64,000 bases of DNA. Source: Nannocystis pusilla (GTDB lineage: Bacteria; Myxococcota_A; Polyangia; Nannocystales; Nannocystaceae). The DNA lies in contig NZ_JAIRAU010000047.1 of the NCBI RefSeq assembly GCF_020073745.1, positions 221,990 to 285,989 on the forward strand, given 5' to 3'. Both the position numbers and the translations under genes were made by a program. Below, one piece after another: positions 181 to 61,180 of the stretch (position 1 is its first letter; every line of letters begins with the position of its first letter). A model generated the notes under the pieces. That model saw nothing but the letters and a program-made list of their open reading frames with translations, was not told the DNA's origin and did not search any database.

Positions 181-1093
181 ATGTCGCGCACGCTCGCGCT
201 GCGAGGGTGCGCAGCGGCGCGCGTGCGCGCTCGCCATGATGTCCGCATGCGCGTCCTCTTCCGCACCGATCCACGCGTCGGGTCGCGTCCCGATCGCGCG
301 TCCGCGCCCGAGGTCGCGGCCGCGGACCCGGTCGGGCTCGCGTGGTCGTGCGTCGATTTCGCAGCGCTTCGTCGAGTTCGGCCCGGCGAGGCCGCGGAGG
401 TCGTCGTGTACCGCGGCTGGCTGTTGCGGGTCGAACACTACGACGCGCGGTACACCGGCCCCCTCGCGCGTAGCCTGCAATTGGTCAACGACCCGGCCGC
501 GTATCGCAGCGCGCACCTGCTGCCGCCGCGCTGCCCTTCCTCGCCGACGACACGCCCGACAGCGTCGTGTGCAGCGCGAGGCCGGCCTCGAGTGGCCGCG
601 CATCGACGCCGCGCTGGTGCGGTCCGGCGGGCGTGCGCTCGTCATCGAGGATTACGGCCAATCGCGCAAGCACGAGGACGACGACGACCACGCCGAGGTG
701 CGGCGCGTGGTCGACGACTTCCTCGAGCGTCAGGGTGGCGAGCTCGTCGGCGGGCTGATCTTCCGCGCCTACGAACCCCTGGTACCGCTCGGGATCCACC
801 CGAGGAGCGGGATGCCGCTCCCTCGCGAGCGGCGGCGCCTCGTCGTCGGTCGCCTGGTCGTCGAGGCGCCCGCGTGGGAGATCGCCGACACGATCGCTGC
901 GCCCGCATTCGCTGAGCTCGCGCGCCGCCTCCCGAGCCGCTTCTTCAGCCTCGATCTAGCCGAGCGCCAGGCCGGCGGCTGGACCGCGATCGAGCTCGGC
1001 GAGGGCATCGACGGCCTTCACATCGCCGTCTGTCGGCTACGCCTTCACGAGGCGCCGACCGATCTCCCTCGCCCCCCGGGGGACATGCCCTGA
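181..1093 (+). pseudogene. Hypothetical protein gene with two apparent frameshifts near 520-600 (pseudogene or sequence error)
   Basis: Strong GC3 coding signal on + strand in frame 1 (181 to ~530), then frame 3 (~528-590), then frame 2 (~590-1093); each segment is protein-like (VLFRTDPRVGS...; ALPFLADDTPDSVVCSA; EAGLEWPRIDAALVRSGGRALVIEDYG...GGWTAIELGEGIDG). No single ORF spans it. Confidence 0.35.
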
Positions 1094-1160
1094 AGGAAAT
1101 GTCCTATCGAGCATGTCGCTTCGGGCATAAGAAAACGGCCATGTCCTCATGGACATGGCC
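1081..1160. repeat. Tandem array (6 units, exact 14-bp period) of the GGACATGTCC-type palindromic motif; convergent intergenic
   Basis: (c)ATG cores at offsets 7,21,35,49,63,77 of the array: gacatgccc/aaatgtcc/gcatgtcg/gcataag/ccatgtcc/gacatggcc. Confidence 0.8.
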
Positions 1161-1206
1161 GTGTGAGCGAGATCGGCGCGCGCCTCGGCGCCGCGCTCGC
1201 TCGACC

Positions 1207-1716
1207 TCATTGCCGGCTCGGCGGGACGGTGCCGGCCCATGTGATCGCCGGCTGCTTCGCCGGCTTCTTCAGCTTCGCCGGCACCTTCCCCGCCCACTCG
1301 ATCGCGGGCTTCTTCGCCCTCTTCGGCACCTCCCCGACCCATTCGATCGCCGGCTTCTTCACCCTCTTCGGCACCTCCCCGACCCACTCGATCGCCGGCT
1401 TCTTCACCCTCTTCGGCACCTCACCGGCCCACTCGATCGCCGGCTGCTTCATCTTCTTCGGCACCTCCCCGGCCCACTCGATCGCCGGCTTCTTCGCCTT
1501 CTTCGGCGCCTTCGCCGGCCGCTCGGCGTCGACGCGCCGGGCCGGCTTGCCGAAGCCGTGGCGTGCCGAGTCGCCGCTGAACGACGCCCCGTGGCCCCGG
1601 CTGGCCACGAGCGGCGCGGGGCCGTCCGCCCCCCACCCGCGGGACGACGAGAGCGTGAAGCTGCAGCCGGTCACGCCGAAGAGGAGCGCCAACAGGGTCA
1701 CGATGAGCTTGTGCAT
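1207..1716 (-). CDS. Lipoprotein with six tandem 15-aa repeats (KKPAIEWAGEVPKRV)
   Basis: Signal peptide with lipobox (LLFGVTGCS); six near-perfect 45-bp DNA repeats encode KKPAIEWAGEVPKRV units; ATG at 1714-1716 preceded by the AT-rich CTTTTAAAAC element. Confidence 0.7.
   Translation of the reverse strand: MHKLIVTLLALLFGVTGCSFTLSSSRGWGADGPAPLVASRGHGASFSGDSARHGFGKPARRVDAERPAKAPKKAKKPAIEWAGEVPKKMKQPAIEWAGEVPKRVKKPAIEWVGEVPKRVKKPAIEWVGEVPKRAKKPAIEWAGKVPAKLKKPAKQPAITWAGTVPPSRQ
1270..1520. repeat. 45-bp tandem repeat x ~6 inside the lipoprotein CDS
   Basis: Repeated unit cactcgatcgccggcttcttcaccctcttcggcacctccccgacc with few substitutions. Confidence 0.85.
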
Positions 1717-1845
1717 TGTTCTTTTAAAACCTCGATGCGCACGGACGCGCGTCGACTCCGCCTATTCAGGCGATCGCCGATCGCCGCAGATCGGCCTCTG
1801 CTCACGGCGTCGCGGCCGCCGGCGCGTGGTGCGGTGATTCGCTGC

Positions 1846-1877
1846 CAATGTCATGACATGACCTGAGAGACATATCT
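1846..1877. repeat. Short GACATG-motif array (caatgtcatgacatgacctgagagacatatc)
   Basis: Three (c)ATGWC cores within the shared upstream region of two lipoprotein genes. Confidence 0.5.
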
Positions 1878-2149
1878 TCCGCGCATCGCGCCAGCGACCT
1901 CGACGGGGTGCGACCGCAGGCTGGGGCCTCCGCGACCCCTTGCGCTCGCGCCGGCCTCGGGCTCGTCATGCGCGCCGCATGCACCATCCGCGCACCTCCG
2001 CCACCTCACGGCCGTGGTCCTCGCGCGGAGCGCCTGCGGCGACGACGGCGCCTCGCCCCTCGCGGCCGCCGTCACGGCGGCGAGCAGTTCGCCCACCGGG
2101 GCCGGCAGGCGCGTCGTCATGGGGCCGGACAGCGTCGCCGTCGGAGGAT

Positions 2150-2288
2150 CTCCGGCGGCGACGTCGTCGTCGCGCTCGAGACGATCGGCGCCGGCGAAGT
2201 GCTGGCCGTCGCCGACTCGTCGATGCTCGGCTGCGTGCCGGGCGAGGCCGACAATTCGCGGTTCGTGGAGAACTTCGCCCTGCACTGA
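2150..2288 (+). pseudogene. Possible gene remnant (C-terminal ~45 aa resembling the end of GldG/DUF4350-type ABC auxiliary proteins)
   Basis: Translation GGDVVVALETIGAGEVLAVADSSMLGCVPGEADNSRFVENFALH* resembles the conserved C-terminal ...V.ADSDFL.N......N..F..N motif; the upstream frame has no continuous protein-like ORF. Confidence 0.2.
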
Positions 2289-2303
2289 TATCCTCGCGGC
2301 TCC

Positions 2304-3419
2304 GTGCCTCGCGCCTCGCTCCTCTGCGCGCTCCTGCTCGCCTGCGCGCACCAGGCCGCGCCGGCCGACTCGGCGCCCCCGACCGCGCCCGCGCCCGCGG
2401 AGGTCGATCCGTGCGCCGCGGCACCTGTCCCCGGGGACAGCACCAAGGCGCTCGCGCGGGCCGACGTGCTGCTCCGCTGCGGCGACGACGCCGGCGCGCT
2501 GGCCGTCCGCTTCGCCCTGCTGCGGCGCGACTACGGCTCGACCGCGCGCGCCTACGCGCTCGCCATGCTGGCCCACGAGTCCGGGCAGGGCCCCGAGTTC
2601 GACGCCACCGTCGCCGACCTGCCGCTGACCGCCGCCGCGCGGGCCGTCTACCGCCTGGCCCGCGACGTCTCGAACTACCTCGACGCCGTCGCCAGGCTGT
2701 CCGAAGAGGCAGGCAAGCCGGGCGAGGCCGGCGTCGACGGCAGCATCCTGGCGCGCGACGTCGCCGCCGCGCTGGCGGTCGCCGGCGAAGATCCCTACGC
2801 GCTGAGCCTCGCGCTGCGCTTCACCGCCGTGCACGACAACGACCCGCGCGAGCGCGCCGCCCCGATCTGCCGCGACCGCGCCGACCCGCTGCTCTCGCGC
2901 CTGCGCGACCGCGAGGGCGCCGCCGTGCTGGCCGGGGCCTGCGGCCGGATCGCCTTCCACTCGGGCGAGCCGATCGACGGCCGGCGCCGGTTCGCCCGCG
3001 CGCTCGAGCTCTCGCCGCGGGACCACGCCGCCGCGATCGCCTGGGCCGCCGCCGAGCTCGCGGCCGGCAACCTCCGCGAGGCGCTGCGGCTGTACGAGCT
3101 GGCCGCCGGGGCCCCGTCGCCGCGGCTGCGCTACGCCGCCTTCCTCGGGCTCGGGGTGACGCACGCCCGCCGCCACGAGCGCGACGCCGCCGAGGCCGCC
3201 TACCGCAGCGCCGCCGCCGTCCGCGGCCTCGACACCGCCGCGCCCGACCGGCTGCCGCCCGAGCTGTCGTTCAACCTCGGCGCCCTGCTCGCCGACACCA
3301 ACGACCCGGCCGCGCGGACCGAGGCGCGCGGGCTGCTGCGGGCCTACGTGGCCGACCCCCGCGCCGACGACCGCCGCCGCCTGCGCGCGCGGATCTTGCT
3401 GCGCGAGCTCGGCGACTGA
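2304..3419 (+). CDS. Secreted TPR-like repeat lipoprotein
   Basis: Signal peptide with lipobox (LLLACA); alpha-helical Ala/Leu-rich repeats; strong GC3 bias. The long antisense ORF 1851..3458 is R/G-rich junk. Confidence 0.65.
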   Translation: MPRASLLCALLLACAHQAAPADSAPPTAPAPAEVDPCAAAPVPGDSTKALARADVLLRCGDDAGALAVRFALLRRDYGSTARAYALAMLAHESGQGPEFDATVADLPLTAAARAVYRLARDVSNYLDAVARLSEEAGKPGEAGVDGSILARDVAAALAVAGEDPYALSLALRFTAVHDNDPRERAAPICRDRADPLLSRLRDREGAAVLAGACGRIAFHSGEPIDGRRRFARALELSPRDHAAAIAWAAAELAAGNLREALRLYELAAGAPSPRLRYAAFLGLGVTHARRHERDAAEAAYRSAAAVRGLDTAAPDRLPPELSFNLGALLADTNDPAARTEARGLLRAYVADPRADDRRRLRARILLRELGD

Positions 3420-3439
3420 CCCACCTCGCCGGGCTCGGC

Positions 3440-3512
3440 GACATGCTCCTGGAGACATGTTCGATTGGGCATGCCCTCATGGACATGCTCGAGGCGACAT
3501 GTCGCATCGGAC
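3440..3512. repeat. Tandem array (5 units, exact 14-bp period) of the GGACATGTCC-type motif; convergent intergenic
   Basis: CATG cores at offsets 5,19,33,47,61: gacatgctcc/gacatgttcg/gcatgccctc/gacatgctcg/gacatgtcgc. Confidence 0.85.
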
Positions 3513-3519
3513 ACAGCGC

Positions 3520-5910
3520 TCAGCGCGACGGCAGCACCGGCACGGCGGTCTGGCTGCGGCCGGTGCCGCCGCCGCCGACGAGGACGCGGCCGTCGACGTC
3601 GGGGGCGTACTCGAGCGGCTCCTCGTAGCGACCGACCAGGCGGCCGAGGCCGGCGCGGCACAGGGCGCTCTGGCTGGAGGGGTCGTGGCCCCACGCTGCC
3701 ACGTGGTCGAGGCAGCGGGCGTACGCGGTGAACACCGCCTCGCGGCGCTGGGCGGCCAGGTCGCGCATCTGCTGGGCCAGGCCGATGTCGCCGGCCTGCT
3801 CGACCGCGGCGGCGACCTCGTCGAGCAGCGCCAGGTCGGACTCGTAGACCTGGGCCTTGCGGGTCTCGATCAGCGCCGCGGCCTGGTCGCGCCCGCCGGC
3901 CGCGCCCGCGGTGGCCCCCTCGTAGACCGCGCTCATGCGCTCGACCTCGTCCTTGCGCACGTCGAGCCACGCGCGCGAGCGGGTCGGGTCGAGGCTCTTG
4001 GGCGGCTGGCTGGTGAGCGCCGACTCGGCCTTGAGGTCGCCGAGCAGCAGCGCGACCTGGCGGCTGGCCGCGCGCGCCTCGTCGACGTCGACCGCGAGCG
4101 GCGCCTCGAGCTTGTCGGGCTCGCCGGCGCTGACCTCGGGCAGCAGCTTCTCCGCGCGGTCGAGGTGCTCGCGGGCCTTCGCCAGCGGCTTGGCGAGGCG
4201 CGGGACCACGCGGGCCGGCGTGCGGTCGCGGCCGAACTCGACGCACAGGCCCTCGGCGCCGTGGACCGGGCACGACGCCCGCAGATACGCCTCGGCCGCC
4301 CGCGCGTACGCGATCGCCAGGCGCCGCGGCCCGCCCTCCTTGCCGAACCGTTCGATGTACTTCTCCGCCGCCTCGGGCGCGACGCCGGGGCGGATCACCG
4401 CGCGGAACTGGATCGCCGCCGCCAGCGTGCGCTCCTCCGGGCGGCCGCGGATCAGCGCCTCGAGCTGTCCTTCGGGCAATGTCCCGGCGCGCAGGCTCAA
4501 GATCAGCGAGCGGCGCCGGGCCGTGGCCGCCGCGCGGTGTCGCGGCGCGCGGGCGACGAGGTCGAGGTAGCGGTCGCGCGCCTGCTCGTCGTTCAAGATC
4601 CGCTCGTGCAGCCGCGCCAGCTGCAGCACCGCGTCGGGCGCCCGCGCGTCCTCGCGGTGGACGTCGGCCATGCGTTCGAGCCAGTCGATCGCCTTCTGCG
4701 TCATGCCGGCGCGCTCGTAGCAGCGGCCGGCCCCGTCGGCCGCCTCGGCCGCGGCGTCGACGTCGGCCCCGAGGTCGGCGTACAGCGCCTCGAAGGCGGC
4801 GCCGCAGCCCACGTCGTCGCCGGCCGCCTCCGACTCCTCGGCCTGGGCCCACAGCGCCGCCCGCCGCAGCGCCGCGATCTGGGTCGCCTGCGTCGCGCCC
4901 GCGGCCTCGACCTCGGCGGCGGCGGTGATCAGCGCCACGCGGGCCGCCGAGCGCTCGCCGGCGCCGGCCGACTCCATCCAGCGCGCCAGCAGCAGGCCGA
5001 CCAGCAGCACCCGGGCCTGCTCGCGCGCCGACCCGGTGACCGCGCGCAGGCCCGCCTCGGCCTCGTCCCAGCGGCGGTACAGCATCAGCAGCTCGGCCCG
5101 CTCGACCGTCACCTGCCCGTGATCGCTCGCGCCCTGCAGGCCCGGTTCGGCCAGGAACGCGTCGTAGGCGGCCAACCACTCGCGGTCGGCCGCCGTCAGC
5201 TCGCCCGGCGCGACGCGCGGGACCGGGTCGGTGCAGCGGCCGCGAGGATCCGGGAGACATGTCTGTTCGGACATGACCCATCGGCGCGGCGGGCCGTCGT
5301 ACACGCGGCGGACCGCGTCGAGCTGCGCGCGCGCCGAGCGGGCCGCCTGATCGGGCGGCAGCCCGCCGGCGAGGGCGGCGCGGTGGTGGGCGTGGGCCTC
5401 GCGCAGCGCGTCGTCGGTCAGCGTGCGCTCGCCGATCTCGAGCGTCAGCTTCTCGGCGCGGGCCCACTCGAGCCGGCCCATCGCGTGGTGCATCTGCGGC
5501 GTGTCGGCGGCCGCCGGGAAGTGCCGGCGCAGCGCCGCGTAGGCCTGCCGGGCCAGCGTGTGGCTCTGCGCCCCGCCCGACTCGGCCCCCTGCTCGGCCC
5601 AGCGCAGCGTCACCGTCGTCAGCGCCTCGCGCGTGGCCTCGGCGCAGGGCTGGCCCGCGCTCGCGCCCGCGGCCTCGTAGGCCCGCACGAGCTTGTCGAT
5701 CTCCTCCCACAGGTAGCGATCGGCCAGCCGCACCAGCCCGTCCTGGACCGCGCTCGCCTGCTCCTCGCAGCCCGCCAAACTCGGCCCGGCGGACGGCGCG
5801 GCGGACGTGTTTAACGGCGCACGCGCCGTCGCCGTCGTCGGCGCCCGCGGGGAGCAGCCGGCCAGCAGCAGCGCCGCGACCGCCCAGCCGAAGCCGCGCC
5901 TTCGGGTCAC
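3520..5910 (-). CDS. Large lipoprotein with TPR-like helical repeats (~796 aa)
   Basis: GTG start at 5908-5910 with GGAGG SD 7 bp upstream gives GFGWAVAALLLAGCS signal/lipobox. The long ORF (to 5997) would read through the motif array, so the shorter start is preferred. Protein is non-R-rich and helical. An in-frame GGACATGTCC-type motif occurs at 5255-5290 (encodes WVMSEQTCLPD). Confidence 0.7.
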   Translation of the reverse strand: MTRRRGFGWAVAALLLAGCSPRAPTTATARAPLNTSAAPSAGPSLAGCEEQASAVQDGLVRLADRYLWEEIDKLVRAYEAAGASAGQPCAEATREALTTVTLRWAEQGAESGGAQSHTLARQAYAALRRHFPAAADTPQMHHAMGRLEWARAEKLTLEIGERTLTDDALREAHAHHRAALAGGLPPDQAARSARAQLDAVRRVYDGPPRRWVMSEQTCLPDPRGRCTDPVPRVAPGELTAADREWLAAYDAFLAEPGLQGASDHGQVTVERAELLMLYRRWDEAEAGLRAVTGSAREQARVLLVGLLLARWMESAGAGERSAARVALITAAAEVEAAGATQATQIAALRRAALWAQAEESEAAGDDVGCGAAFEALYADLGADVDAAAEAADGAGRCYERAGMTQKAIDWLERMADVHREDARAPDAVLQLARLHERILNDEQARDRYLDLVARAPRHRAAATARRRSLILSLRAGTLPEGQLEALIRGRPEERTLAAAIQFRAVIRPGVAPEAAEKYIERFGKEGGPRRLAIAYARAAEAYLRASCPVHGAEGLCVEFGRDRTPARVVPRLAKPLAKAREHLDRAEKLLPEVSAGEPDKLEAPLAVDVDEARAASRQVALLLGDLKAESALTSQPPKSLDPTRSRAWLDVRKDEVERMSAVYEGATAGAAGGRDQAAALIETRKAQVYESDLALLDEVAAAVEQAGDIGLAQQMRDLAAQRREAVFTAYARCLDHVAAWGHDPSSQSALCRAGLGRLVGRYEEPLEYAPDVDGRVLVGGGGTGRSQTAVPVLPSR

Positions 5911-5929
5911 CGCCGCCCCTCCGTACGGG

Positions 5930-6022
5930 ATGTCCGCATGGACATGTCCCTTCGAGCAGCGAACCCCGGCGCGCGACGAGCCGCCGCCGCCACGCATGGC
6001 TTCACAGACATGTCCCGAAGTA
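5930..6022. repeat. GGACATGTCC motif array between kinase stop and lipoprotein start
   Basis: gatgtccgcatggacatgtcccttcg ... cacagacatgtcccgaag; contains an exact GGACATGTCC. Confidence 0.8.
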
Positions 6023-6039
6023 CACGCGCCTCGCCCCGC

Positions 6040-7920
<1,881 letters not shown>

Positions 7921-8012
7921 GGATCTTCGTGTGTTGGGCCCCGGGGGCCCGCAACGCCGCGAACCCGACCCGAGCGCGCAAGGTCCGCGGTGGGACCTAT
8001 AGTCCCCCCACG

Positions 8013-8456
8013 ATGCACTTTCGCCCGGCCACGAGCTCCGACGTCCCCGCGATCCTCGACATGATGGAGGACTTCAACCGCCTGGAGCACATCCCGTGGC
8101 AGCGCGGCCCGGGCGAGGCGCCCCTGCGCACGCTGATCGGCTCGCCCGGGCTCGGCACCGTCGGCCTCGCCGTCGAGGGCGACGCTGCGCTCGGCTACTA
8201 CATCCTCACGTGGGGCTTCGACCTCGAGTGGGGCGGCCGCGACGCCTTCCTGACCGAGCTGTACCTCCGCCCCGAATTCCGCGGCGGCGGCCGCGGCCGC
8301 CTGGTCCTCGACGCCGCCCTGGCGACCGCCCGGGCCCACGACGCCCGCGCGATCCACCTCATGGTCCGCACCGACAACACCCCCGCCCTCCAGCTCTACC
8401 GCAGCGCCGGCTTCTCCGCCCCGCCGCGCGTGCTGATGACCCGCCCGCTCGATTGA
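8013..8456 (+). CDS. GNAT family N-acetyltransferase
   Basis: ATG at 8013 (MHFRPATSSDVPAILDMMED...); acetyl-CoA binding motif RGGGRGRLVLDAAL; -10-like TATAGT inside the near-palindrome GGGACCTATAGTCCC at 7992-8006. Confidence 0.8.
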   Translation: MHFRPATSSDVPAILDMMEDFNRLEHIPWQRGPGEAPLRTLIGSPGLGTVGLAVEGDAALGYYILTWGFDLEWGGRDAFLTELYLRPEFRGGGRGRLVLDAALATARAHDARAIHLMVRTDNTPALQLYRSAGFSAPPRVLMTRPLD

Positions 8457-8464
8457 GGGCCCAC

Positions 8465-8570
8465 GGCCATGTGCCTCATGCGACATGCTCGATTGCGCAT
8501 GTCCTCATCACCATGCCCATTCGCGCATGCCCTCTCGAGCATGTGCGAACGAACATGCCCGCCTCACCGC
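8465..8570. repeat. Tandem array (8 CATG cores, last 6 with exact 14-bp period); convergent intergenic
   Basis: CATG at offsets 4,13,20,34,48,62,76,90 of ggccatgtgcctcatgcgacatgctcgattgcgcatgtcctcatcaccatgcccattcgcgcatgccctctcgagcatgtgcgaacgaacatgccc. Confidence 0.85.
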
Positions 8571-10099: not shown

Positions 10100-10464
10100 G
10101 ACCGCCTCCATCCCAGCGCCGCGAACGCCTCGGCCAGCGGCGCCGGCCCGGGACCCCTCGTCTCGGGGGCCGGCGGCGGCTTCGGCGGCGTCGCGGGCGG
10201 CGGCAGGCTGGCCCAAAATTCATGGCCCAGGCGCTTCTCGTGGTCGCGCAGGGCCGCCATCGCCGCGCGCACCTTGTCCTCGGTGCGGGCGCGCGGCCCG
10301 AGCGGGCTCATATAGGTCGCGGCCGACTTGAGCTTGAGCCCGAGCATGCCGAGCAGCTTCTGGCCCTCGCGCTCGACGTCGACCCGGGTGCAGTCGGGCC
10401 GCAGCCCGAGCACGTGGAACGGGTTGTCGCCCAGCGGCTCGAATTCGTCTGACTTTTGCGACAT
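10096..10464 (-). CDS. Degenerate J-domain-like protein (no HPD motif), probable Hsp70 partner
   Basis: N-terminus NPFHVLGLRPDCTRVDVEREGQKLLGMLGLKLKSA...KVRAAMAALRDHEKR has a J-domain helix II/III pattern but lacks HPD; Pro-rich tail; ATG lies inside a GACATG motif (cgccATGtcgc). Confidence 0.5.
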   Translation of the reverse strand: MSQKSDEFEPLGDNPFHVLGLRPDCTRVDVEREGQKLLGMLGLKLKSAATYMSPLGPRARTEDKVRAAMAALRDHEKRLGHEFWASLPPPATPPKPPPAPETRGPGPAPLAEAFAALGWRRS

Positions 10465-10507
10465 GGCGTTCCCGACAGGTTCTTTACCACATGGTCGAAC
10501 AGACAGC

Positions 10508-12967
<2,460 letters not shown>

Positions 12968-12992
12968 GGCGGGCAAGTGTACCCGGGCGCCC

Positions 12993-13481: not shown

Positions 13482-13548
13482 GCACCATGCGACATGTCCG
13501 AAGATCCTCGTGGCCCTCAGGTCATGTCTCATACGCCATGTCCCGAGA
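13465..13548. repeat. GGACATGTCC-type motif array (cgacatgtccgaag...ggtcatgtctc...gccatgtcccgag)
   Basis: Five CATG cores between the sigma-factor gene and the downstream lipoprotein gene. Confidence 0.7.
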
Positions 13549-13653
13549 TATTATTCGGCCGCGCCTCGGCCGCGCCCACGCGCCCACGCGCGCCGCTCCC
13601 CGCTCGCGCGCCGGGGGCCCCCGTCGTGCTCGGCGGGCCGCCGCGCCGGGCGT

Positions 13654-15453: not shown

Positions 15454-15464
15454 GCCGCACCTGA

Positions 15465-53222: not shown

Positions 53223-53264
53223 TCGCCCCGCGATGCCCGCCGCCCTCACCTGCCCGAATCACCA

Positions 53265-53335
53265 TGCTTCTGGGGCCATGCCCTTTGAGACATATCCATT
53301 CGAGCATGCCCTCACGAACATGTCCCCGGGAGCCG
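53265..53335. repeat. Motif array between the two membrane-protein paralogs
   Basis: ggccatgccctttgagacatatccattcgagcatgccctcacgaacatgtccccggg. Confidence 0.75.
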
Positions 53336-53342
53336 GACCCTC

Positions 53343-54329: not shown

Positions 54330-54380
54330 ACGCCTCTTCGGACATGTCCGTCACGACATGTCCAGGAAAACATCACGGCG
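54330..54380. repeat. Motif array abutting the sulfatase stop codon
   Basis: cttcggacatgtccgtcacgacatgtccagg (two exact or near-exact GGACATGTCC). Confidence 0.8.
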
Positions 54381-56373
54381 TGACGATGTTGAACGCCTGC
54401 GGGAACTGATCGAGCAGGCCGAAGAGCTCCTCGACCGCCGCCCGGTTCCCGCGCAGCTTCAGCGCCCCGGCGGCGATCGCCTGGTCGAGCGACGTCTCGC
54501 CCGCCTGCAGCGCGATCAGCGTCATCTTCGACAGCGCCAGGCTCGCGTCGGCGTCGGCGACCTCGGCCGAGCGTCGCCCGTAGTTCAGCACCCCGTGCGC
54601 GACCGTCAGCTCGTAGCGCTCCTTGGGCTCGGTGAAGTGGATGTCGAGCTTGAGCCGGGTCGCGGCCGCGCGCGCGCCGTTGAGGCGGACGGCCATGAGG
54701 TCGAACAGCAGCGCCGGCGTCAGCGCGCGCAGCGTGTCCGGCCCGGCCGTCTGGGCCGCCGAGCCGCTCGGCACGCCCTGGCGCAGCTCGAAGGCGCCTT
54801 GCAGGTACACCGCGCGCCACGGCCCCGACTCCGCCTGGTAGCCCAATTGCTCGTAGGCGTCGGCCAGCAGCTCCTTGCCGGCCGCGCTGTCGGGGTTGGC
54901 GAACACCACGTGGCGCAGCACCTCGGCGACCCAGCGGTACTCCCCGCGCTCGAAGTCGGCGCGGGCCCGCTCGATCGCCGCCGCCTCGCCGCCCATGTAC
55001 TCGACGTACTTGCGGGCCGCCGGCTCCTGCGGCAGCACGTCGAGGTCCGACGGGTTGCCGCTGTAGAAGCCCATGTATCGCTGATACACCGCTCGCGCGT
55101 TGTGGCGCACCGTCCCGTAGTAGCCGCGGTTCGGCCAGTACTGCGCCAGGTCGGGCGGCAATTGCAGGTACTCCGCGATCTCCGGGCCCACGTAGCCGAA
55201 GTTCAGCATGTGCACCGATTGATCGTGGATGTACTTGTACAGGTCGCGCTGCTTCTCGAGGTACGAGCGCACGTTGGCCTTGCCCCACATCGGCCAGTGG
55301 TGGGCTTGGAACTTGACCTCGATCGCGTCGCCGTACAGCCCGATCGTCTCGTCGATGTACTTGGCCCACGCCAGCGCGTCGCGCACCTGCGCCCCGCGCA
55401 GCGTCAGGACGTTGTGCAGCGTGTGCGTCGTGTTCTCGGCCATCCACATCGCCCTGAACTGCGGGAAGTAGGTGTTCATCTCGGCCGGCGCCTCGGTGTT
55501 GGGCGTCAGCTGGAACACCATCTTCACCCCGTCGATCGTCAGCTCCTGGCCCGTCTTCGTGATCGACTGCGTCGGCGCGATCAGCGACACCGTGCCGCTC
55601 GCGTTCGCCATGCCGAGCCCGCTGCCCACCGTGCCCTGTGGGTCGCGGGGCAGGAACGTCCCGTACATGTACGCCGCGCGGCGAGTCATCGCCGGGCCCG
55701 CGAGCACCATCTCGCTCACCGCGTGGGCGAGGAAGCCCTCCGGCGCGATGATCCGCACCCGTCCCGCGCGCACCGCGGCCTCGTCGACCAGCCCGCGCAC
55801 GCCCCCGTAATGATCGGGGTGCGAATGGCTGTAGATCACGGCCACGATCGGTCGGTCGCCGAGGTGCTGCTTCACCAGCGCGTGCGCGGCCCTCGCCGTC
55901 TCGACGGTGAGCAGCGGGTCCATCACGATCCACCCGCGGTCGCCCTTGATGAACGTGATGTTCGCCAGGTCGAAGCCGCGCACCTGATAGACCCGCTCGG
56001 TCACCTTGAACAGGCCGTAGATCAAGTTCAGCTGCGATTGTCGCCACAGGCTCGGATTGACCGTGTCGGGCGCCGGCGCGTCGCGGCGGATGAACTTCTT
56101 GAACGGCTCGAGGTCCCACACCACATTACCGTCGCCGTCGGTGATGGTCAGCGTGTGCGGGCGGGCGATGAGCCCGCGCTCGGCGTCCTCGAAGTCGGCG
56201 CGGTCCGAGAACGGCAGCGACTGCAGCAGCGCCGCGTTGGCCCGCCGCGTCGCCTCGGTCGCCGGCTTCGGCCCGTTCGGCGCCGCGGCCAGGCCCGCGT
56301 ACGTCACACCGGCCAGCAGCAATCCGAGGGCGACGAACCAGATCCGCGAGACGTGAGCTCTCCGTGGCTGCAT
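54373..56373 (-). CDS. Alkyl/aryl-sulfatase (SdsA1/BDS1 type; MBL fold + SCP2 domain), secreted
   Basis: Metallo-beta-lactamase HSHPDHYGG; dimerisation and SCP2 C-terminal regions; signal peptide from ATG 56371-56373. Confidence 0.85.
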   Translation of the reverse strand: MQPRRAHVSRIWFVALGLLLAGVTYAGLAAAPNGPKPATEATRRANAALLQSLPFSDRADFEDAERGLIARPHTLTITDGDGNVVWDLEPFKKFIRRDAPAPDTVNPSLWRQSQLNLIYGLFKVTERVYQVRGFDLANITFIKGDRGWIVMDPLLTVETARAAHALVKQHLGDRPIVAVIYSHSHPDHYGGVRGLVDEAAVRAGRVRIIAPEGFLAHAVSEMVLAGPAMTRRAAYMYGTFLPRDPQGTVGSGLGMANASGTVSLIAPTQSITKTGQELTIDGVKMVFQLTPNTEAPAEMNTYFPQFRAMWMAENTTHTLHNVLTLRGAQVRDALAWAKYIDETIGLYGDAIEVKFQAHHWPMWGKANVRSYLEKQRDLYKYIHDQSVHMLNFGYVGPEIAEYLQLPPDLAQYWPNRGYYGTVRHNARAVYQRYMGFYSGNPSDLDVLPQEPAARKYVEYMGGEAAAIERARADFERGEYRWVAEVLRHVVFANPDSAAGKELLADAYEQLGYQAESGPWRAVYLQGAFELRQGVPSGSAAQTAGPDTLRALTPALLFDLMAVRLNGARAAATRLKLDIHFTEPKERYELTVAHGVLNYGRRSAEVADADASLALSKMTLIALQAGETSLDQAIAAGALKLRGNRAAVEELFGLLDQFPQAFNIVTP

Positions 56374-56647: not shown

Positions 56648-58684
56648 TCAGGGCGCGACCAGGATCCGCGCCGAGCGGGCCGGCACCGTCACCATCGGCC
56701 CCTCGACCATCTCGCCGGTCAGCTCGTCCTTCAGCGTCATCGCCGGCAGGTTGCCGACCGACTTGTCCGCGTCGCTGCGGTTGACGGCCACCGTCACCGT
56801 CTCGCCCTCGCCGGACATCGAGTAGGCGAAGCTGTCGGCGTCGGCGCCGAGGCGCGTGTACGACCCGCGGCGCAGCGCCGGGTGGGCCGCGCGGATCGCC
56901 CCCAGATCCTGGATATGACCCAAGAGCCAGGTCTGCCCCGCCGAGTAGCCGTCCCACTGCATGAAGCGGCGGTTGTCGGGGTCGCCGGCGCCGGGCATGC
57001 CGACCTCGTCGCCGTAGTACACCAGCGGCGCGCCGAGCGACGTGTAGAGCATCGTGAAGCTCAGCCCCAGGCGCTCGAACGCCGCGGCGCCGCCCGGCAG
57101 CCCCGGCTTGTTGTCCCACGCCCGGTCCTTGCCGTCGGCCCACTGGTTGTTCCACAGCGGCGAGTCCTCGGCCAGGTGGATCGCGCGCGGGATGTCGTGG
57201 TTGCCGATGAACGTGCTCATCACCGCCGCCCCGCCGTTGTAATAATTATTGTTGGCGTCGTAGAAGTCGGCCAGCTCCGTCATCGAGCCCTGGCGCATCA
57301 GCACGTTGTAGGCCATCTGCATGCGCAACGGGAAGTCGAACTGGCCGTCGAGCTTGTCGCAGCCGACGTACTTGTTGATGGTCGGCTTGTCGCCCGTGAA
57401 CGTCTCGCCGACCATGTAGAAGTGCTGACCCGACATCGGCTCGACGTCGGCCTGGACGCGCGCGCGCAGGTCGGTCAGCCACTCGATCTTGATGTGCTTG
57501 ACCGCGTCGAGGCGGAACCCGTCGGCGCCGGTGTCCATGATCCACTGGATCGCGTTGTCGATCGAGAATTCGCGGGCCGCCTGGTTGCTGAAGTCGAAGT
57601 CGGGCAGGTAGTCGGTGAACCAGCAGCGCTCGCCGTCGGCCCCGTCCCACGAGCAGCCGGCCCCGCACACGCAATCGCCGCCGCTCCCGTTGTCGTTGGG
57701 GTTGAACCAGTCGGGGTTGTCGGCGTAGACCGGCGCGCTGATGTGCACGTGGTTCATCGCGTAGTCGAGGATCACCTTGAGGTCGGCCGCGTGGGCCGCC
57801 GCCACCAGCGCCTGCAGTTCCGCCAGCGTGCCGAAGTGCTCCTCGGTCTGCGTCAGGTCGGTCGGCCAGTAGCCGTGGTACGCGCTGTACAGGTGCCCGT
57901 CGGTGCCGAGGCCGTCGTCCGAGGTGTTGTTCATCGGCACCGTCAGCCACAGCGTGTTGATCCCGAGCTCGGTGAAGTACCCCTCCTCGATCTTCGCCGT
58001 CACCCCGGCCCAGTCGCCGCCCTGCCAGTCGGCCGCCGTCTCCACCCCGATCAGCGCGTCGTTGCCCGGATTGCCGTTGTTGAAGCGGTCGACGAACACG
58101 AAGTAGATCACCGCGTCGCGCCAGTCGAACTGGCCCTCCTGCGGCGCCCCGCACGAGGCCGCCTCGCAGGTGAACGGGTCGCACGTCTTCGGCTCGAGCA
58201 CCGAGTTGTAGCCGCCGAACCCGTCGTCGACCTGCTCGGGGTTGTTCGGGTCGGGGATCCAGCTCATCGACCCGTCGATGCGCAGCTTGTACTGCACGGG
58301 CGTGTCCCACGGGACAGTCACCGTCACGCGCCAGGTCGTCCCGTCGCTCTTCATCGCCGCGCCCTTCGTCCACCCGTCGGGCGCGAAGCTCCCCATCACG
58401 TCGACCGACGTCTCGCCGTTGTCGGGGTGCGTGAATTCGTGGTCGCAACGCTTCAGCGCGTCGTCGCACATCGGCGGCGGCGGCTCGCCCGTGGTCGGCT
58501 CGCCGGTCGTCGGCTCGGGCCCTCCCGTGGCGTAGCCCGTCACGTTCCCGCCCTGCGACGGGTCGTACGGCATCGTGCTCGGCGGCATCGTCACCGAGTC
58601 CGTCGTCTCCGACATGAGCGGCGGATCGGTGCAGCCGACCCACAAGATCGAAAGGACAGGCAGGATCCGGTGCGAGCGCGACAC
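56648..58684 (-). CDS. Alpha-amylase family glycoside hydrolase (GH13), secreted/lipoprotein
   Basis: GH13 regions (DYAMNHV, GFRLDAVKHI, EXXXXXXXW, FIGNHD); GTG start gives signal LSILWVGCT. Confidence 0.85.
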   Translation of the reverse strand: MSRSHRILPVLSILWVGCTDPPLMSETTDSVTMPPSTMPYDPSQGGNVTGYATGGPEPTTGEPTTGEPPPPMCDDALKRCDHEFTHPDNGETSVDVMGSFAPDGWTKGAAMKSDGTTWRVTVTVPWDTPVQYKLRIDGSMSWIPDPNNPEQVDDGFGGYNSVLEPKTCDPFTCEAASCGAPQEGQFDWRDAVIYFVFVDRFNNGNPGNDALIGVETAADWQGGDWAGVTAKIEEGYFTELGINTLWLTVPMNNTSDDGLGTDGHLYSAYHGYWPTDLTQTEEHFGTLAELQALVAAAHAADLKVILDYAMNHVHISAPVYADNPDWFNPNDNGSGGDCVCGAGCSWDGADGERCWFTDYLPDFDFSNQAAREFSIDNAIQWIMDTGADGFRLDAVKHIKIEWLTDLRARVQADVEPMSGQHFYMVGETFTGDKPTINKYVGCDKLDGQFDFPLRMQMAYNVLMRQGSMTELADFYDANNNYYNGGAAVMSTFIGNHDIPRAIHLAEDSPLWNNQWADGKDRAWDNKPGLPGGAAAFERLGLSFTMLYTSLGAPLVYYGDEVGMPGAGDPDNRRFMQWDGYSAGQTWLLGHIQDLGAIRAAHPALRRGSYTRLGADADSFAYSMSGEGETVTVAVNRSDADKSVGNLPAMTLKDELTGEMVEGPMVTVPARSARILVAP

Positions 58685-58894
58685 GCGGCCCCGAGGATGG
58701 CGCCTCGCCCGGCTCGCGGTCAAGCGCCCGGCCGCCTCCGACCCACGCCCGCCGACCTCGGGCCGCGGACGACCGGCCCCGACCGGCCCCGCCATTTACA
58801 TGTCTTTTAAAACATGTCGAATCAGCCAGACCGAGCGCTCCGTTGTCGCCTCCGCTGAGCATTTCTCGGCCCGGCGACGAGCGGGGCCCACGAC

Positions 58895-59095
58895 GCTCGC
58901 TGCAGGCGGGCACGGAGCGGCGGATTTGGGACGCCGGTGGGACGGAGACGCGGTTCAGCGCGCGCAGGCGCCCGTCCTCCGCGCGCGCGACGAACATGTC
59001 CTCAAGAGCATCTTGTCCCCAGCCAAGGCGCCGAGCACGTGAACCGGTGGGGGCCCGCCGAGCGAGGGGCCCAAATCCGCCGCTCCGTGCCCGCC
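58895..59095. mobile_element. ~200-bp MITE-like repeat with 26-bp terminal inverted repeats (copy 1)
   Basis: GGCGGGCACGGAGCGGCGGATTTGGG at 58895-58920 and its exact reverse complement at 59070-59095; ~90% identical second copy begins at ~63836 and is truncated by the window end. Confidence 0.55.
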
Positions 59096-59215
59096 GTCAC
59101 CCAGTTCTTCCGGGCCCCGCGCCTTCGCACGCGCCTTCCGGGCCCCCGCGCCTTCGCACGCGCCAAGCCCAGTTCTTCCGGGTTCCGCGCCTTCGCACGC
59201 GCCAAGCTCAGCCGC
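59095..59215. repeat. 37-bp tandem repeat x3 (ttcttccgggccccgcgccttcgcacgcgccaagcccag)
   Basis: Three consecutive copies with minor substitutions directly 3' of the MITE-like element. Confidence 0.7.
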
Positions 59216-59217
59216 GT

Positions 59218-60135
59218 TCACCCCGGCCCGAAGTCCTGGCGATAGCTACCGCGCTCGATGTCCTCGACCAGCCCCGGCCGCGACGGACGCCAGCCGAGCG
59301 CCCGCGCGTGCGTCGCTCGCACCCGGCTGTTGGACGCCAGGCCCAGGGCCGCAGCCTCCTCGCCGAGCGCCGCGATCGCCTCGGCCAGCGGCCACGACGT
59401 CGTGCGGTCGCCGAACCCGAGCAGGTGCGCGATCGCCAGCGCCACCTCGCGCAGCGACGTCTCGCCGTTCTCCGCGAAGAAGAAGCTGCCGGGCTCGGCC
59501 TTGTCGATCACCAGCGTGTACAGGTCGACGAGGTCGTCGATGTGCACGTTCGACCAGATGTTGCGACCTTCGCCGATGTACACCCCCGCGCCGCGCTGCT
59601 GCGACTCGCGGATCAGCATCGGCACCTGGATCGAGTCGCGCTTGCTGCCGGTGCCGCGGCCGTAGATCATCGTCGGGCACACCACGACGCTGCAGACCCC
59701 CTGGTGGGCCGCGTCGCGGACGAAGCGGTCGATGGCCACGCGCGCCGCCTTCGCCGGCACCGGCGTGAACGGCGAGTCGTCGGTGAACACCTGCTCCGAC
59801 CGCTCGCCCGTGCCGACCTCGGCCACGATCGACGACCCGCTGGTGTGTACCAGCGTCTTGCCGCTCCCGCGCATCCCGGCGACCAGCGCCTCGACCGCCG
59901 GGCGGTGGTCCGCGTCCGCCGTGCTGATCACCAGGTCGGCCGCGTCGGCCAGGCGCACCAGGAGGTCCGTATCGTCGAGCCCGCCGATCACCGGCCGCAC
60001 GCCCGTCGCCTCCACCCGGACCGCGCTCGCCGGATCGCGGACCAGGCCCGTCACCTCGTAGCCGTCCTGCACCAGCCGTCGCGCCACCGAGCCGCCGATA
60101 TAACCGGAAACACCTGTCACAAATGCACGCTTCAT
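59218..60135 (-). CDS. NAD(P)-dependent epimerase/dehydratase (NmrA/SDR-like)
   Basis: Rossmann motif VTGVSGYIGGSVARRL; ATG at 60133-60135. Confidence 0.8.
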   Translation of the reverse strand: MKRAFVTGVSGYIGGSVARRLVQDGYEVTGLVRDPASAVRVEATGVRPVIGGLDDTDLLVRLADAADLVISTADADHRPAVEALVAGMRGSGKTLVHTSGSSIVAEVGTGERSEQVFTDDSPFTPVPAKAARVAIDRFVRDAAHQGVCSVVVCPTMIYGRGTGSKRDSIQVPMLIRESQQRGAGVYIGEGRNIWSNVHIDDLVDLYTLVIDKAEPGSFFFAENGETSLREVALAIAHLLGFGDRTTSWPLAEAIAALGEEAAALGLASNSRVRATHARALGWRPSRPGLVEDIERGSYRQDFGPG

Positions 60136-60227
60136 CTCGCTGCTCCTGTGCCGCGAGCATGGTGTGTTCCTGCGCAGCATGGTAGTGTGATTCCTGGCAC
60201 ACCATCTGTGCCTGAAAGGCAAACCTC
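60136..60227. promoter_or_regulatory. Divergent LysR-type intergenic region with inverted repeats
   Basis: ATGGTGTG ... CACACCAT (8-bp inverted repeat) and GGCACA-ccatct-GTGCC between the epimerase and LysR starts. Confidence 0.4.
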
Positions 60228-61115
60228 GTGGACCTGTCGCCGCAACTCCACGCGTTCGTCCGCAGCGTGCGGGCGGGCAGCTTCAGCGCCGCCGCGCGCG
60301 AGGCCGGCACCACCCCCTCGGCCTTCAGCAAGCAGGTCGCGCGGCTCGAGCAGAAGCTCGGCGTACCGCTGGTCGTGCGCAGCGGCCAGGGTCTGCAGCC
60401 GACCCTTGAGGGCGAGGCCCTGTTCGCGCGGGTGCAGCGGGCCTTCGACGACATCACCGACGCCTGCGAGGAGGCCGCCCGGGCCACCGGCCCGCGCGGG
60501 CAGGTCCGCCTGAGCGCCCCGGTCGAGCTCGGCCACGCCTGGCTGGTCCCGCGCCTGCCCGCCCTGCACCGCGCGCACCCGCAGATCGCCGTCGCGCTCG
60601 AGCTCGCCGATCGCTTCGTCGACCTGCACGCCGAGCAATTCGACCTCGCCTTGCGCGTCGGCGGCGACGGCGACGGCCGGCTCGTCCAGCGGCGGCTCGG
60701 TCGCCTGCGCCGCTGCTTCTGCGCCACCCCGGCCTACCTCAAGGCCCACGGCGTCCCGCGCACCCCCGAGGCCCTCGCGGGTCACCGCCTGCTCGCCATC
60801 CTCCGCGCCGGCCGGCGCGTCGTCTGGGAGCTGCCCGGCGGCGGCCGCCTCACCCCGCAGGGCCCCGTCGCCAGCGACAGCAACGAGGCCCTGCGCCAGC
60901 TCGTCCTCGCCGGCATGGGCATCGCCTGGCTGCCCGACGTCACGATCGCCGTCGACCTCAAGCGCGGCGCCCTGCGCCAGCTCTTCGCCGACACCCCCGA
61001 GGAGCCCGGCCTGCCGATCCAGCTCGTGTTCCCGCAGAGCCGCCTGCTCGCCCCGCGCGTCCGCGCCGTCGTCGACTTCCTCGTCGCCGCCGCCCGCAGC
61101 ACCATGTCCGCATGA
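60228..61115 (+). CDS. LysR family transcriptional regulator
   Basis: N-terminal HTH (LHAFVRSVRAGSFSAAAREAGTTPSAFSKQVARLE) + LysR substrate-binding domain; divergent to the epimerase. Confidence 0.85.
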   Translation: MDLSPQLHAFVRSVRAGSFSAAAREAGTTPSAFSKQVARLEQKLGVPLVVRSGQGLQPTLEGEALFARVQRAFDDITDACEEAARATGPRGQVRLSAPVELGHAWLVPRLPALHRAHPQIAVALELADRFVDLHAEQFDLALRVGGDGDGRLVQRRLGRLRRCFCATPAYLKAHGVPRTPEALAGHRLLAILRAGRRVVWELPGGGRLTPQGPVASDSNEALRQLVLAGMGIAWLPDVTIAVDLKRGALRQLFADTPEEPGLPIQLVFPQSRLLAPRVRAVVDFLVAAARSTMSA

Positions 61116-61180
61116 ACATGTCCTTGTCGCCATGTTCCTCGGCGCGGCGCGCAGCGAAGCCTGCACGAACCTGTCCCGAG
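61110..61180. repeat. Motif array 3' of the LysR regulator gene
   Basis: accatgtccgcatgaacatgtccttgtcgccatgttcctcg ... gaacctgtcccgag. Confidence 0.75.

Follow-up and report, generated by a model that had tools for sequence, protein, structure and literature searches.

Short interrupted palindromes of the Nannocystis lineage, dense just after stop codons

Analysis of a 64,000-nucleotide stretch of Nannocystis pusilla DNA (hereafter the window) identified, with high confidence, a family of short interrupted palindromes that is restricted to the Nannocystis lineage, dense just after stop codons and rarer in genes. The repeat unit is the 14-bp interrupted palindrome TGTCC-N4-GGACA (CTGTCC-N4-GGACAG in isolated copies), and units are abutted head to tail in arrays of 2-7. 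Because abutting units meet at a CA|TG junction, the arrays display CATG and GGACATGTCC cores on a strict 14-bp lattice. The original prediction had described a 10-bp palindrome plus a 4-bp spacer; its 14-bp period holds, and the unit is better described as abutted TGTCC-N4-GGACA, which also occurs singly and in genes.

Both the spacing and the phase of the repeat are strict. TGYCC-Nn-GGRCA was found 225 times at n=4 and no more than 10 times at any other n, and distances of 14 bp numbered 194 versus 5 at 13 bp. The two central spacer bases are 64% A/T in a 73% GC genome. CATG-to-CATG distances in the window showed the expected autocorrelation, with 37 at 14 bp, 25 at 28, 17 at 42 and 8 at 56; nearly every other distance was seen only 0-4 times. 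The exact 10-mer GGACATGTCC was also over-represented as predicted (7 in the window, 0.03 expected from dinucleotide shuffles), and the variant centre GACAGGTC/GACCTGTC was found. Strict in-phase CATG chains numbered 24, and a relaxed lattice scan detected 40 arrays in the window compared with 0-2 (about 1) in block shuffles, which agrees with the more than 30 loci first proposed; the five arrays measured earlier (approximately 1081-1160, 3440-3512, 8465-8570, 20490-20565 and 27690-27765) are all in 14-bp register. In-phase CATG pairs numbered about 58 per 100 kb of window sequence, compared with 23 per 100 kb across other Nannocystis tiles, and extrapolation from these densities suggests thousands of copies per genome. 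The lattice scan and the Nannocystis genomes thus bear out an abundant, non-CRISPR signal that is genome-wide and lineage-wide.

The arrays lie at 3' ends and between cistrons and are kept out of divergent promoter gaps. In the window they were present in 6/8 convergent, 11/34 co-directional and 0/8 divergent gaps, contrary to the claim that they fill almost every gap whatever the gene orientation. In an unbiased set of 584 Nannocystis gaps the corresponding values were 41%, 10% and 6%, with none in the 76 divergent gaps of less than 300 bp, and the placement pattern was repeated in the orthologous L125 using precomputed gene calls. Arrays in co-directional gaps lie a median of 35 nt past the upstream stop and 166 nt ahead of the next start; this proximity to the upstream stop, together with the empty short divergent gaps, does not support the proposed placement in 5' leaders.

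The convergent gaps of the window contain a 6-unit array at 1079-1162 (gap 1094-1206; recovered by both the CATG chain and the lattice scan), a 5-unit array at 3437-3506 (gap 3420-3519; fold z-scores -4.3/-2.2), a 6-unit array at 8479-8562 (gap 8457-8563), a 5-unit array with mixed CAGG/CCTG/CATG centres at 15469-15538 (gap 15454-15548), a 5-unit array at 32829-32898 (gap 32829-32913) and, at 54338-54393, an array of two perfect units plus degenerate ones (gap 54330-54372). Co-directional gaps harbor 4-unit arrays at 20502-20557 (gap 20490-20570) and 41551-41606 (gap 41415-41632), 5-unit arrays at 42427-42496 (gap 42245-42501) and 53258-53327 ((+) gap 53223-53342), and pairs of 2-unit elements at 5924-5951 and 6004-6031 (gap 5779-6039), 13474-13501 and 13518-13545 (gap 13482-13653), and 58794-58821 and 58990-59017 (gap 58616-59217). 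Some arrays occupy operon junctions of only 25-40 bp. Other gene junctions carry a degenerate 4-unit array at 10457-10512 (co-directional, 10465-10507), a 3-unit array at 24042-24083 (co-directional, 24050-24087) and a single exact GGACATGTCC at 14390-14399 (14389-14416), the last located by the 10-mer count. Start codons had been noted inside units, and some arrays do touch start or stop codons at operon junctions: the 4-unit array at 44484-44539 covers both the stop codon of a spermine-synthase-like gene and the following gene's start, and that at 45914-45969 fills the 40-bp junction from a TonB-receptor stop to a PepSY_TM start. In addition, a 3-unit plus a 2-unit element (61098-61192) lie downstream of gene 60228-61115(+), two weak 2-unit elements (63642-63669 and 63957-63984) downstream of gene 62950-63564(+), and a CCTG/CAGG-type inverted repeat (25730-25757) about 110 nt downstream of the tRNA gene at 25545-25618.

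Besides gene ends, the unit is also found inside genes. TGTCC-N4-GGACA occurs 75 times in CDS interiors versus 2.8 expected from synonymous-codon shuffles, a 27-fold enrichment, whereas the N3 and N5 forms and composition-matched control motifs are at expectation. Single half-sites in CDS (296 versus 128 expected) exceed expectation by no more than the 75 pairs account for, so the unit is a strict palindrome. Isolated copies lie within CDS at 2426-2439, 17299-17312, 22901-22914, 42063-42076, 42923-42936 and 58303-58316, and a 2-unit element at 5253-5280 lies within ORF 3520-5778(-), where the coding signal shows a local dip. A kinase ORF of 1203 aa (25833-29444(-)), whose L125 orthologue is called as one gene, carries four elements in its low-complexity half (26218-26245, 27117-27144, 27465-27492 and a 6-unit array at 27682-27765). 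In a TonB-receptor ORF, a degenerate 5-unit array (48259-48328) follows the putative signal peptide and precedes the plug domain. In the 963-aa ORF 34252-37143(-), the linker from the ACP to the AMP-binding domain contains an in-frame 4-unit array (36806-36861), the lattice of which is kept in L121 too; the linker is equally long in homologues, so this array is not an insertion.

Comparison with relatives indicated both stability and turnover. A scan of 185,579 species found the palindrome almost only in Nannocystis, a genus of soil myxobacteria, and Nannocystaceae, and the 14-bp lattice recurs across seven or more named Nannocystis genomes as well as several MAGs. Orthologous positions in relatives also carry arrays (for example, L125 has the orthologue of the 32829-32898 array at 14416-14461), and restriction to the window as a local or assembly artefact is therefore excluded. 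The window and N. radixulma share 95% identity; at that distance arrays keep both their positions and their copy numbers, with the 53258-53327 array unchanged in copy number in N. radixulma L077. Between orthologous arrays, identity was 57% in spacers, 77% in the GGA/TCC flanks and 88% in CATG, and selection acts on the arms rather than the spacers. At 44484-44539, two G->T changes 14 nt apart, relative to three relatives, have made in-phase CATGs. We tentatively infer that arrays are kept, and even created, by point changes towards the consensus. Unit slippage was seen directly: orthologous sites differ in copy number from one species to another, and L021 has a recent expansion with identical spacers (CGTTCGGACATGCA x6) that L106 lacks. 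Arrays are dense in the lineage of the window and almost missing in L121 (75% nucleotide identity).

Fold z-scores lay between -2 and -8 for most arrays, whichever strand was folded. Folding energies were -17.8 kcal/mol for the consensus two-unit RNA and -9.9 kcal/mol for the 18-nt unit, and the array at 54338-54365 folds from either strand (dG -15.0 and -16.7). The 10-bp stem hairpin GCCCGAAGGA-CATGC-TCCTTCGGGC is present as predicted, at 20539-20563 within the 20502-20557 array region, about 4 nt from the 20535-20559 first given. The right-hand two units of the 1079-1162 array form, on the minus strand (1162->1135), a hairpin with a 12-bp stem (dG -23.8) followed by UUUUCUU. This is the only canonical hairpin with a U tail among about 40 arrays, and since a U-tract 3' of the arrays is generally missing, they are not canonical intrinsic terminators. 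At symmetric arm positions read in the sense orientation, G.U-compatible mismatches outnumber A.C ones (83 versus 49); local GC skew explains only part of this excess, and a transcription- or replication-linked mutation bias could produce it. The stem-closing position covaries (A-T 88 and C-G 61 versus A-G 40 and C-T 48; Fisher p = 1.4e-4). No covariation of half-sites was found within lattices, nor any pairing past the conserved core in 89 isolated copies; what is conserved is sequence, not pairing.

No Rfam family matches the repeat, and a literature search found no description of it. Like intrinsic (Rho-independent) terminators, the arrays place a GC-rich hairpin directly 3' of genes, in the 1162->1135 (-) case with a U-rich tail; unlike them, the elements form arrays, also sit in ORFs and keep their stem sequence conserved across loci. 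The original prediction had set the repeat apart from REP/BIME elements, and this does not hold for its genomic distribution, which is the one described for REP families, namely gaps separating convergent or unidirectional ORFs, sites 3' of coding regions and, at times, gene interiors (PMC3733652). The GTAG-/CGTC-tagged REP/BIME super-families are likewise short palindromes in hundreds to thousands of copies, mostly in convergent or unidirectional gaps, rare in divergent gaps and occasionally in genes; they frequently cluster, are specific to a species or genus, and have been proposed to work as hairpins in transcribed RNA. Only the anatomy differs, in that REP/BIME units of 20-40 bp form inverted dimers with variable linkers, whereas the 14-bp Nannocystis unit is interrupted with a free 4-nt centre, carries neither a GTAG nor a CGTC tag, follows a strict head-to-tail lattice and is strongly enriched in CDS. 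The distribution also matches that of the TRIT motif ("Tuberculosis Rho-independent terminator") of Mycobacterium, a bidirectional palindrome of conserved sequence that is confined to its genus and lies at the gene ends of a high-GC genome; from this conservation its authors suspected a dedicated factor (PMC3152330). Both are conserved, gene-end-bound hairpins in genomes poor in canonical terminators. TRIT, however, is a single longer hairpin in 147 copies with its centre some 8 nt upstream of the stop codon, whereas the Nannocystis repeat, with thousands of copies by extrapolation, forms arrays of 2-7 units mostly past the stop codon and also has its unit in genes.

The protein-binding array, uptake-type signal and mini-satellite originally put forward are all live as rivals or partial truths. 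A putative dimeric helix-turn-helix-type protein might bind TGTCC-N4-GGACA as a 14-bp operator-like site, side by side every 14 bp, and serve at gene ends as a roadblock or insulator, a supercoiling barrier or a nucleoid-organising site. The sharply bounded palindrome without complementarity past the core, half-sites conserved independently without covariation, strict spacing and phase around a free spacer sequence, and A/T-rich spacer centres all argue for such binding; if the bound protein represses promoters, divergent promoter gaps should be free of sites, and MetJ is a precedent for tandem arrays of palindromic boxes bound co-operatively. On the other hand, we know of no bacterial sequence-specific DNA-binding protein with thousands of post-stop-codon sites per genome, a roadblock within ORFs and operon junctions should be harmful, the 14-bp period sets adjacent dimers 120 degrees apart round the helix, and neither the sense-strand G.U excess nor the A-T/C-G covariation is expected of protein-DNA recognition. 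We consider this explanation unlikely, if worth keeping in view.

Two readings in which the repeat accumulates or survives where it does least harm appear weaker. One is a genome-wide drive, either uptake-type (DUS/USS) or a repair- or methylation-linked palindrome such as HIP1, for which gene 3' ends are the most permissive sites and copies there may secondarily serve as hairpins. In cyanobacteria, the highly iterated palindrome HIP1, GCGATCGC, is also lineage-specific, greatly over-represented and found inside genes. It is an uninterrupted 8-mer and, to our knowledge, has neither the 3'-end preference nor the phased tandem arrays of the Nannocystis repeat. DUS/USS of Neisseriaceae and Pasteurellaceae are likewise lineage-specific short motifs, at about 1 per kb in CDS and intergenic DNA, with inverted pairs concentrated in terminators. 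Predicted terminators contain about half of all DUS/USS and most of the inverted-repeat ones, and CDS copies are biased in reading frame (bioRxiv 10.1101/2025.10.24.684340). The CDS enrichment over all controls, the restriction to a genus or family and point substitutions converging on the consensus are in line with a drive of this kind. However, DUS/USS are non-palindromic, enriched singly and without phased lattices, whereas only the strict N4 palindrome is enriched here; uptake or repair would leave the tandem lattices, the stop-codon proximity and the empty short divergent gaps unexplained, and we regard such a drive as quite improbable. The other is a selfish repeat without host function, a REP/MITE-like mobile element or mini-satellite, which the variable orthologous copy number, the L021 expansion, the near-absence from L121 and in-frame copies within genes, as for some REPs, would suit. 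Yet conserved arms combined with unrelated spacers show that the majority of copies did not arise by recent copy-and-paste; arms evolve far slower than spacers at orthologous sites, arrays hold their place and unit number at 95% genome identity, the ACP-linker array was not inserted, and no tag, target-site duplication or transposase link was seen. A purely selfish origin is very unlikely.

We tentatively prefer, at somewhat less than even confidence, to view the repeats as a new REP/TRIT-like family whose hairpins act at transcript 3' ends, probably via a sequence-specific factor. A purely 3'-end role leaves the CDS-interior enrichment unexplained, and strong termination is hard to reconcile with arrays within real ORFs and 25-40-bp operon junctions. 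Both places where the elements are found, CDS and 3' regions, are transcribed DNA. They would be transcribed together with the upstream gene and form either CAUGUCC-N4-GGACAUG or a 10-bp stem joining two neighbouring units, and arrays would gain and lose units by 14-bp slippage. Arm sequence and loop length are held more tightly than folding needs, which points to a putative factor that may read the stem by sequence and geometry. Since palindromic arms give the same RNA hairpin from either strand, one array could serve both convergent genes, and in Nannocystis such hairpins may define the 3' ends of transcripts, protect them or bring about termination, as has been proposed for REP/BIME and mycobacterial TRIT.

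Phased arrays of a palindromic repeat occur in the window far more often than expected by chance. In this DNA of 73% GC, dinucleotide shuffles predict 0.03 copies of the 10-mer GGACATGTCC, and seven copies were found. Distances between CATG tetramers are concentrated at 14 bp (37 pairs), 28 bp (25), 42 bp (17) and 56 bp (8), with nearly all other distances represented by 0-4 pairs. Both the enrichment of the 10-mer and the 14-bp periodicity claimed in the original prediction are therefore strong. Chaining of in-phase CATGs resulted in 24 arrays, including all five whose phase had been measured previously, and a relaxed lattice scan (CAGG/CCTG centres allowed) resulted in 40 arrays in the 64 kb, compared with 0-2 in block-shuffled sequence. 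A hairpin quoted at 20535-20559 is also present, its true position being 20539-20563. The arrays were correctly judged not to be CRISPR-like: more than 30 dispersed loci carry 10-bp cores separated by spacers of 4 bp, which rules out a CRISPR array with its repeats of ~23-50 bp and unique spacers of similar length.

The position matrix of the unit reads GGA-CATG-TCC followed by four weakly constrained bases, the two central ones being 64% A/T, and the lattice has dyad symmetry about two axes, which pass through CATG and the spacer. The inverted repeat TGYCC-N4-GGRCA was found 11 times in the window against 0.37 expected, and its spacing is strict, with 225 copies at N4 and no more than 10 at any other spacing from 0 to 10. 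Single copies have the form CTGTCC-N4-GGACAG (89 in ~1 Mb), and no complementarity extends the stem past this core. The simplest description of these patterns is a 14-bp interrupted palindrome, TGTCC-N4-GGACA; when such units abut head to tail, their CA|TG junctions yield the CATG and the 10-bp palindrome noted originally. The earlier description of a 10-bp palindrome plus a 4-bp spacer was accurate as to period and core sequence, but the unit is better regarded as the interrupted 14-bp palindrome.

We scanned one genome per species (185,579 species) with the query GACATGTCC-N5-GACATGTCC and obtained at least 120 stretches, ~110 of which, among the matches listed, belong to Nannocystis or a Nannocystaceae MAG. 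The Nannocystis carriers among these matches are N. exedens, N. pusilla, N. punicea, N. bainbridge, N. radixulma, Nannocystis sp. RBIL2 and MAGs, and the remaining listed matches are single strays in unrelated taxa with no further lattice. MAG BC1.173 is one of the lattice-bearing genomes. Because arrays recur in numerous independent genomes, and also at sites that are orthologous, an assembly artefact or a local duplication is ruled out, and the signal is not confined to the window. Segment 48349-56287 of the window shares 95% identity with N. radixulma NCELM, which places the window in a Nannocystis genome. The signal is therefore a lineage property. Viral contigs gave two stray matches, which are uninformative. 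A low-GC viral contig (L127, IMG/VR, 44% GC) carries eight copies of GACATGTC within 14.7 kb, probably an unrelated repeated operator. A search of the whole window against Rfam at the gathering threshold returned no family for the repeat; the sole match is a tRNA gene at 25545-25618 on the + strand (63.9 bits), and ~110 nt downstream of it, at 25730-25757, lies an inverted repeat of the CCTG/CAGG type that belongs to the lattice family. No description was found in the literature on the motif, or on repeats, palindromes or REPs in Sorangium, Nannocystis or myxobacteria. Searches with the 10-mer returned only p53 response-element and primer papers, and the 10-mer resembles the p53 half-site RRRCATGYYY by coincidence only.

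To place the arrays relative to genes, genes were called with a codon-score model that had been trained on the window itself, and the calls were checked against precomputed gene calls at orthologous loci, and 584 gaps that had not been used for locus selection served as an unbiased set. Arrays are present in 6 of 8 convergent gaps of the window and 41% of those in the unbiased set (48% at 30-299 bp), in 11 of 34 co-directional gaps (unbiased, 10%), and in none of 8 divergent gaps (unbiased, 6%, and 0 of 76 below 300 bp). Between co-directional genes the median array lies 35 nt past the upstream stop codon and 166 nt ahead of the next start, a stop-proximal placement, and some arrays occupy operon junctions of 25-40 bp. 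The precomputed calls of L125, a locus orthologous to part of the window, agree: in-phase pairs are found in one convergent gap, in co-directional gaps and at one operon junction, and none in its two divergent gaps. Intergenic single copies are likewise missing from divergent gaps (0 of 34). The original claim that arrays fill gaps regardless of gene orientation, 5' leaders included, must thus be replaced: they are 3'-end and inter-cistronic elements. A lower-GC interval at 61887-62236, scored as a convergent gap by the gene caller, has no lattice; it probably belongs to a coding region on the - strand (ORF 61923-62924), possibly of foreign origin. A Shine-Dalgarno role of (A/G)GGA, considered at operon junctions only, was rejected because the in-unit ATG lies at the wrong distance and most arrays are not followed by a start.

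This distribution is that of REPs, extragenic elements that lie mainly downstream of coding regions and between ORFs in convergent or unidirectional arrangement (PMC3733652): 6/8, 11/34 and 0/8 of the convergent, co-directional and divergent gaps in the window, and 41, 10 and 6% in the unbiased set. The anatomy is different, since REPs, which are associated with a RAYT (an IS200/IS605-like tyrosine transposase flanked by the repeats), are imperfect palindromes of 20-40 bp with a GTAG/CGTC end tag, and the Nannocystis element has a 14-bp unit with a 10-bp core and, according to the position matrices, neither GTAG nor CGTC beside its units. The earlier statement that the repeat is not REP/BIME-like is accordingly right for its structure and wrong for its distribution. 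The element also resembles TRIT as a genus-restricted, conserved palindromic hairpin at gene termini, a likeness of kind that is not put forward as homology. TRIT of Mycobacterium is the only comparable conserved motif, and no reader is known for it (PMC3152330). The Nannocystis elements can be grouped with such REP/TRIT-like 3' palindromic repeats, their unusual features being the phased lattice and an enrichment inside genes.

The latter enrichment is strong. In the interiors of 470 confidently called CDS, the N4 palindrome was found 75 times, compared with 2.8 ± 1.6 after synonymous-codon shuffling, with no excess over expectation for N3, N5 or composition-matched controls. Half-sites in CDS number 296 against 128, a surplus that the 75 strict N4 palindromes explain. 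This and the strict spacing separate the element from DUS/USS, which are non-palindromic 9-12-mers over-represented as single motifs in both orientations and which enhance DNA uptake through a specific competence receptor. Palindromes of the HIP1 type are over-represented genome-wide, CDS included. The Nannocystis element shares this property (75 versus 2.8 in CDS interiors, 11 versus 0.37 in the window) but differs from HIP1 in its concentration at 3' ends and its phased arrays. The CDS enrichment, together with the lack of single copies in divergent gaps, indicates that the element is favoured throughout transcribed DNA. It is densest just after genes and excluded from promoter regions.

Whole arrays also occur in frame: in the linker between the ACP and AMP-binding domains of a conserved 963-aa enzyme, directly after the putative signal peptide of a TonB-dependent receptor, and in a 1203-aa kinase protein, within its low-complexity half. 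Insertion into the gene was ruled out for the ACP-linker array, because homologues have an equally long linker. This array (36806-36861) lies in a widely conserved three-domain enzyme, where its units encode ...SDMSE...HV... (alignment A1, columns ~135-160). Distant homologues have SDMP or DRSE at the site, and the linker in L121, a comparison locus without intergenic lattices, nevertheless retains CATG/CAGG/CATG in 14-nt phase. Such conservation hints that, within this gene, the nucleic acid itself has long been under constraint. Longer tandem repeats in coding regions are unrelated to the lattice: 45 bp x6 (1257-1525), 57 bp x3 (15618-15798), 54/105 bp (27172-27423) and 27 bp x4 (43016-43119). 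The repeats at 27172-27423 share the low-complexity half of the kinase ORF with four lattice elements.

At 95% genome identity, the copy number and position of arrays are unchanged, and at 82% identity spacers differ while whole cores are identical. Across nine orthologous comparisons (77-96% identity), CATG is 88%, the GGA/TCC flanks 77% and the spacers 57% identical. Arms and spacing are constrained, whereas spacers are not. Unit number varies between species (e.g., 2 versus at least 5), and one recent expansion of six units with identical spacers indicates slippage. At 44484-44539, the window differs from three relatives by two G->T changes, spaced exactly 14 nt, that turn CAGG into in-phase CATG. 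L121, at 75% nucleotide identity, is almost without lattices and has only scattered CCTGTCC-N4-GGACAGG-type copies, and a more distant relative of 69% GC has no lattice. Myxococcus xanthus and a close relative with an 11-Mb genome (L124) are among the genomes without one. Other repeats were observed in N. pusilla. Locus L005 contains at 3010-3759 a ~46-bp minisatellite, GCGCTCTCGCnTCCTCGCAAACGCGAGATGTTCAA, in ~9 copies without spacers, with a 2-unit lattice element downstream. In locus L108, a ~190-bp segment is present three times at 3194-4000, each with a gene 3' end and a 2-unit element, so that elements can spread by larger local duplication too. Locus L123 of a Nannocystaceae relative (GCA_964267895; orthologue 66% identical in amino acids) has direct repeats of GCCATGTCCCnnnn with a 14-bp period at 3052-3189, within a called 258-aa gene that has no Pfam match. 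Their left half is not GGA and adjacent spacers are nearly identical; they may represent a diverged version of the lattice.

In folding predictions, a consensus two-unit RNA reached -17.8 kcal/mol and an 18-nt unit -9.9 kcal/mol; real arrays fold from both strands. Over consensus and real hairpins, dG ranges from -9.9 to -23.8 kcal/mol, and z-scores go down to -8. Palindromic arms give an identical stem from both strands, which suits convergent pairs. A canonical terminator was rejected: the hairpin is stable and GC-rich, but the U-tract of 7-9 nt is missing. Over 94 oriented arrays there is in general no U-tract on the 3' side, T frequency being at most 0.34 at every downstream position, and only one terminator-like site in window positions 1-20000 falls within an array (1162->1135, - strand). 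Ordinary intrinsic terminators do occur in this clade, as a canonical hairpin with U7 adjoins a tRNA gene in L121 (20702-21538), in a gap that also has about six scattered CCTGTCC-N4-GGACAGG-like copies. No covariation was found within lattices, whether intra-unit, inter-unit or between CAGG/CCTG centre pairs in full units; an early signal was a product of locus selection and vanished once the selected matches were removed. Covariation is seen at the position closing the stem, where A-T and C-G exceed A-G and C-T (p = 1.4e-4); two element classes may contribute to it. Mismatches in sense orientation are more often G.U-compatible (83) than A.C (49), the split being 53:17 for genes on the G-rich strand and 30:31 on the C-rich strand, which points to a weak orientation effect added to a skew effect.

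We conclude with high confidence that the repeats form a family of interrupted palindromes, specific to the lineage and distributed like REP elements and mycobacterial TRIT. Its function can be proposed only tentatively. The best fit is that transcribed, strand-symmetric hairpins would define, protect or terminate 3' ends, a reading favoured because of the stop proximity, the convergent preference, the confinement to transcribed DNA and weak asymmetries of the RNA type. Strict sequence and spacing suggest a sequence-specific reader rather than folding alone. A lattice bound by protein as double-stranded DNA would account for the strict geometry and the absent covariation, yet it fits poorly with in-gene copies and thousands of sites, and we consider it rather unlikely. 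A drive or uptake-type signal, which would explain the CDS enrichment, is less probable still, as phased arrays, stop proximity and palindrome-only enrichment would be left unexplained. Slippage is real and might suggest a purely selfish repeat, but unrelated spacers between conserved arms speak against recent copying and make this the least probable of these alternatives.

Another reading, more novel and also unlikely, is a putative factor-dependent, sequence-coded bidirectional 3'-end signal. Co-operative recognition of the TGTCC-N4-GGACA lattice by a dedicated protein, in a 14-nt register and as RNA stem or duplex DNA, would end or delimit transcription for both members of a convergent pair. 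Hairpin-plus-U-tract terminators would thereby be largely replaced in a 73% GC genome, and the same recognition of single in-gene copies would explain the 27-fold CDS enrichment. The strict geometry makes these proposals easily tested.

The repeat can serve as a diagnostic marker of Nannocystis DNA in metagenomes and as an annotation guide, since arrays flag operon junctions and the ends of genes, and ORF callers can be misled by them. In the engineering of myxobacterial natural-product clusters, the arrays are candidates for terminator or insulator parts. With 40 arrays in 64 kb, the Nannocystis signal is far more abundant than TRIT, and its 3'-end arrays and strong in-gene enrichment join REPs, uptake sequences and iterated palindromes, which are usually handled apart. 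The finding bears on how very-high-GC bacteria with few canonical terminators end and stabilise their transcripts.
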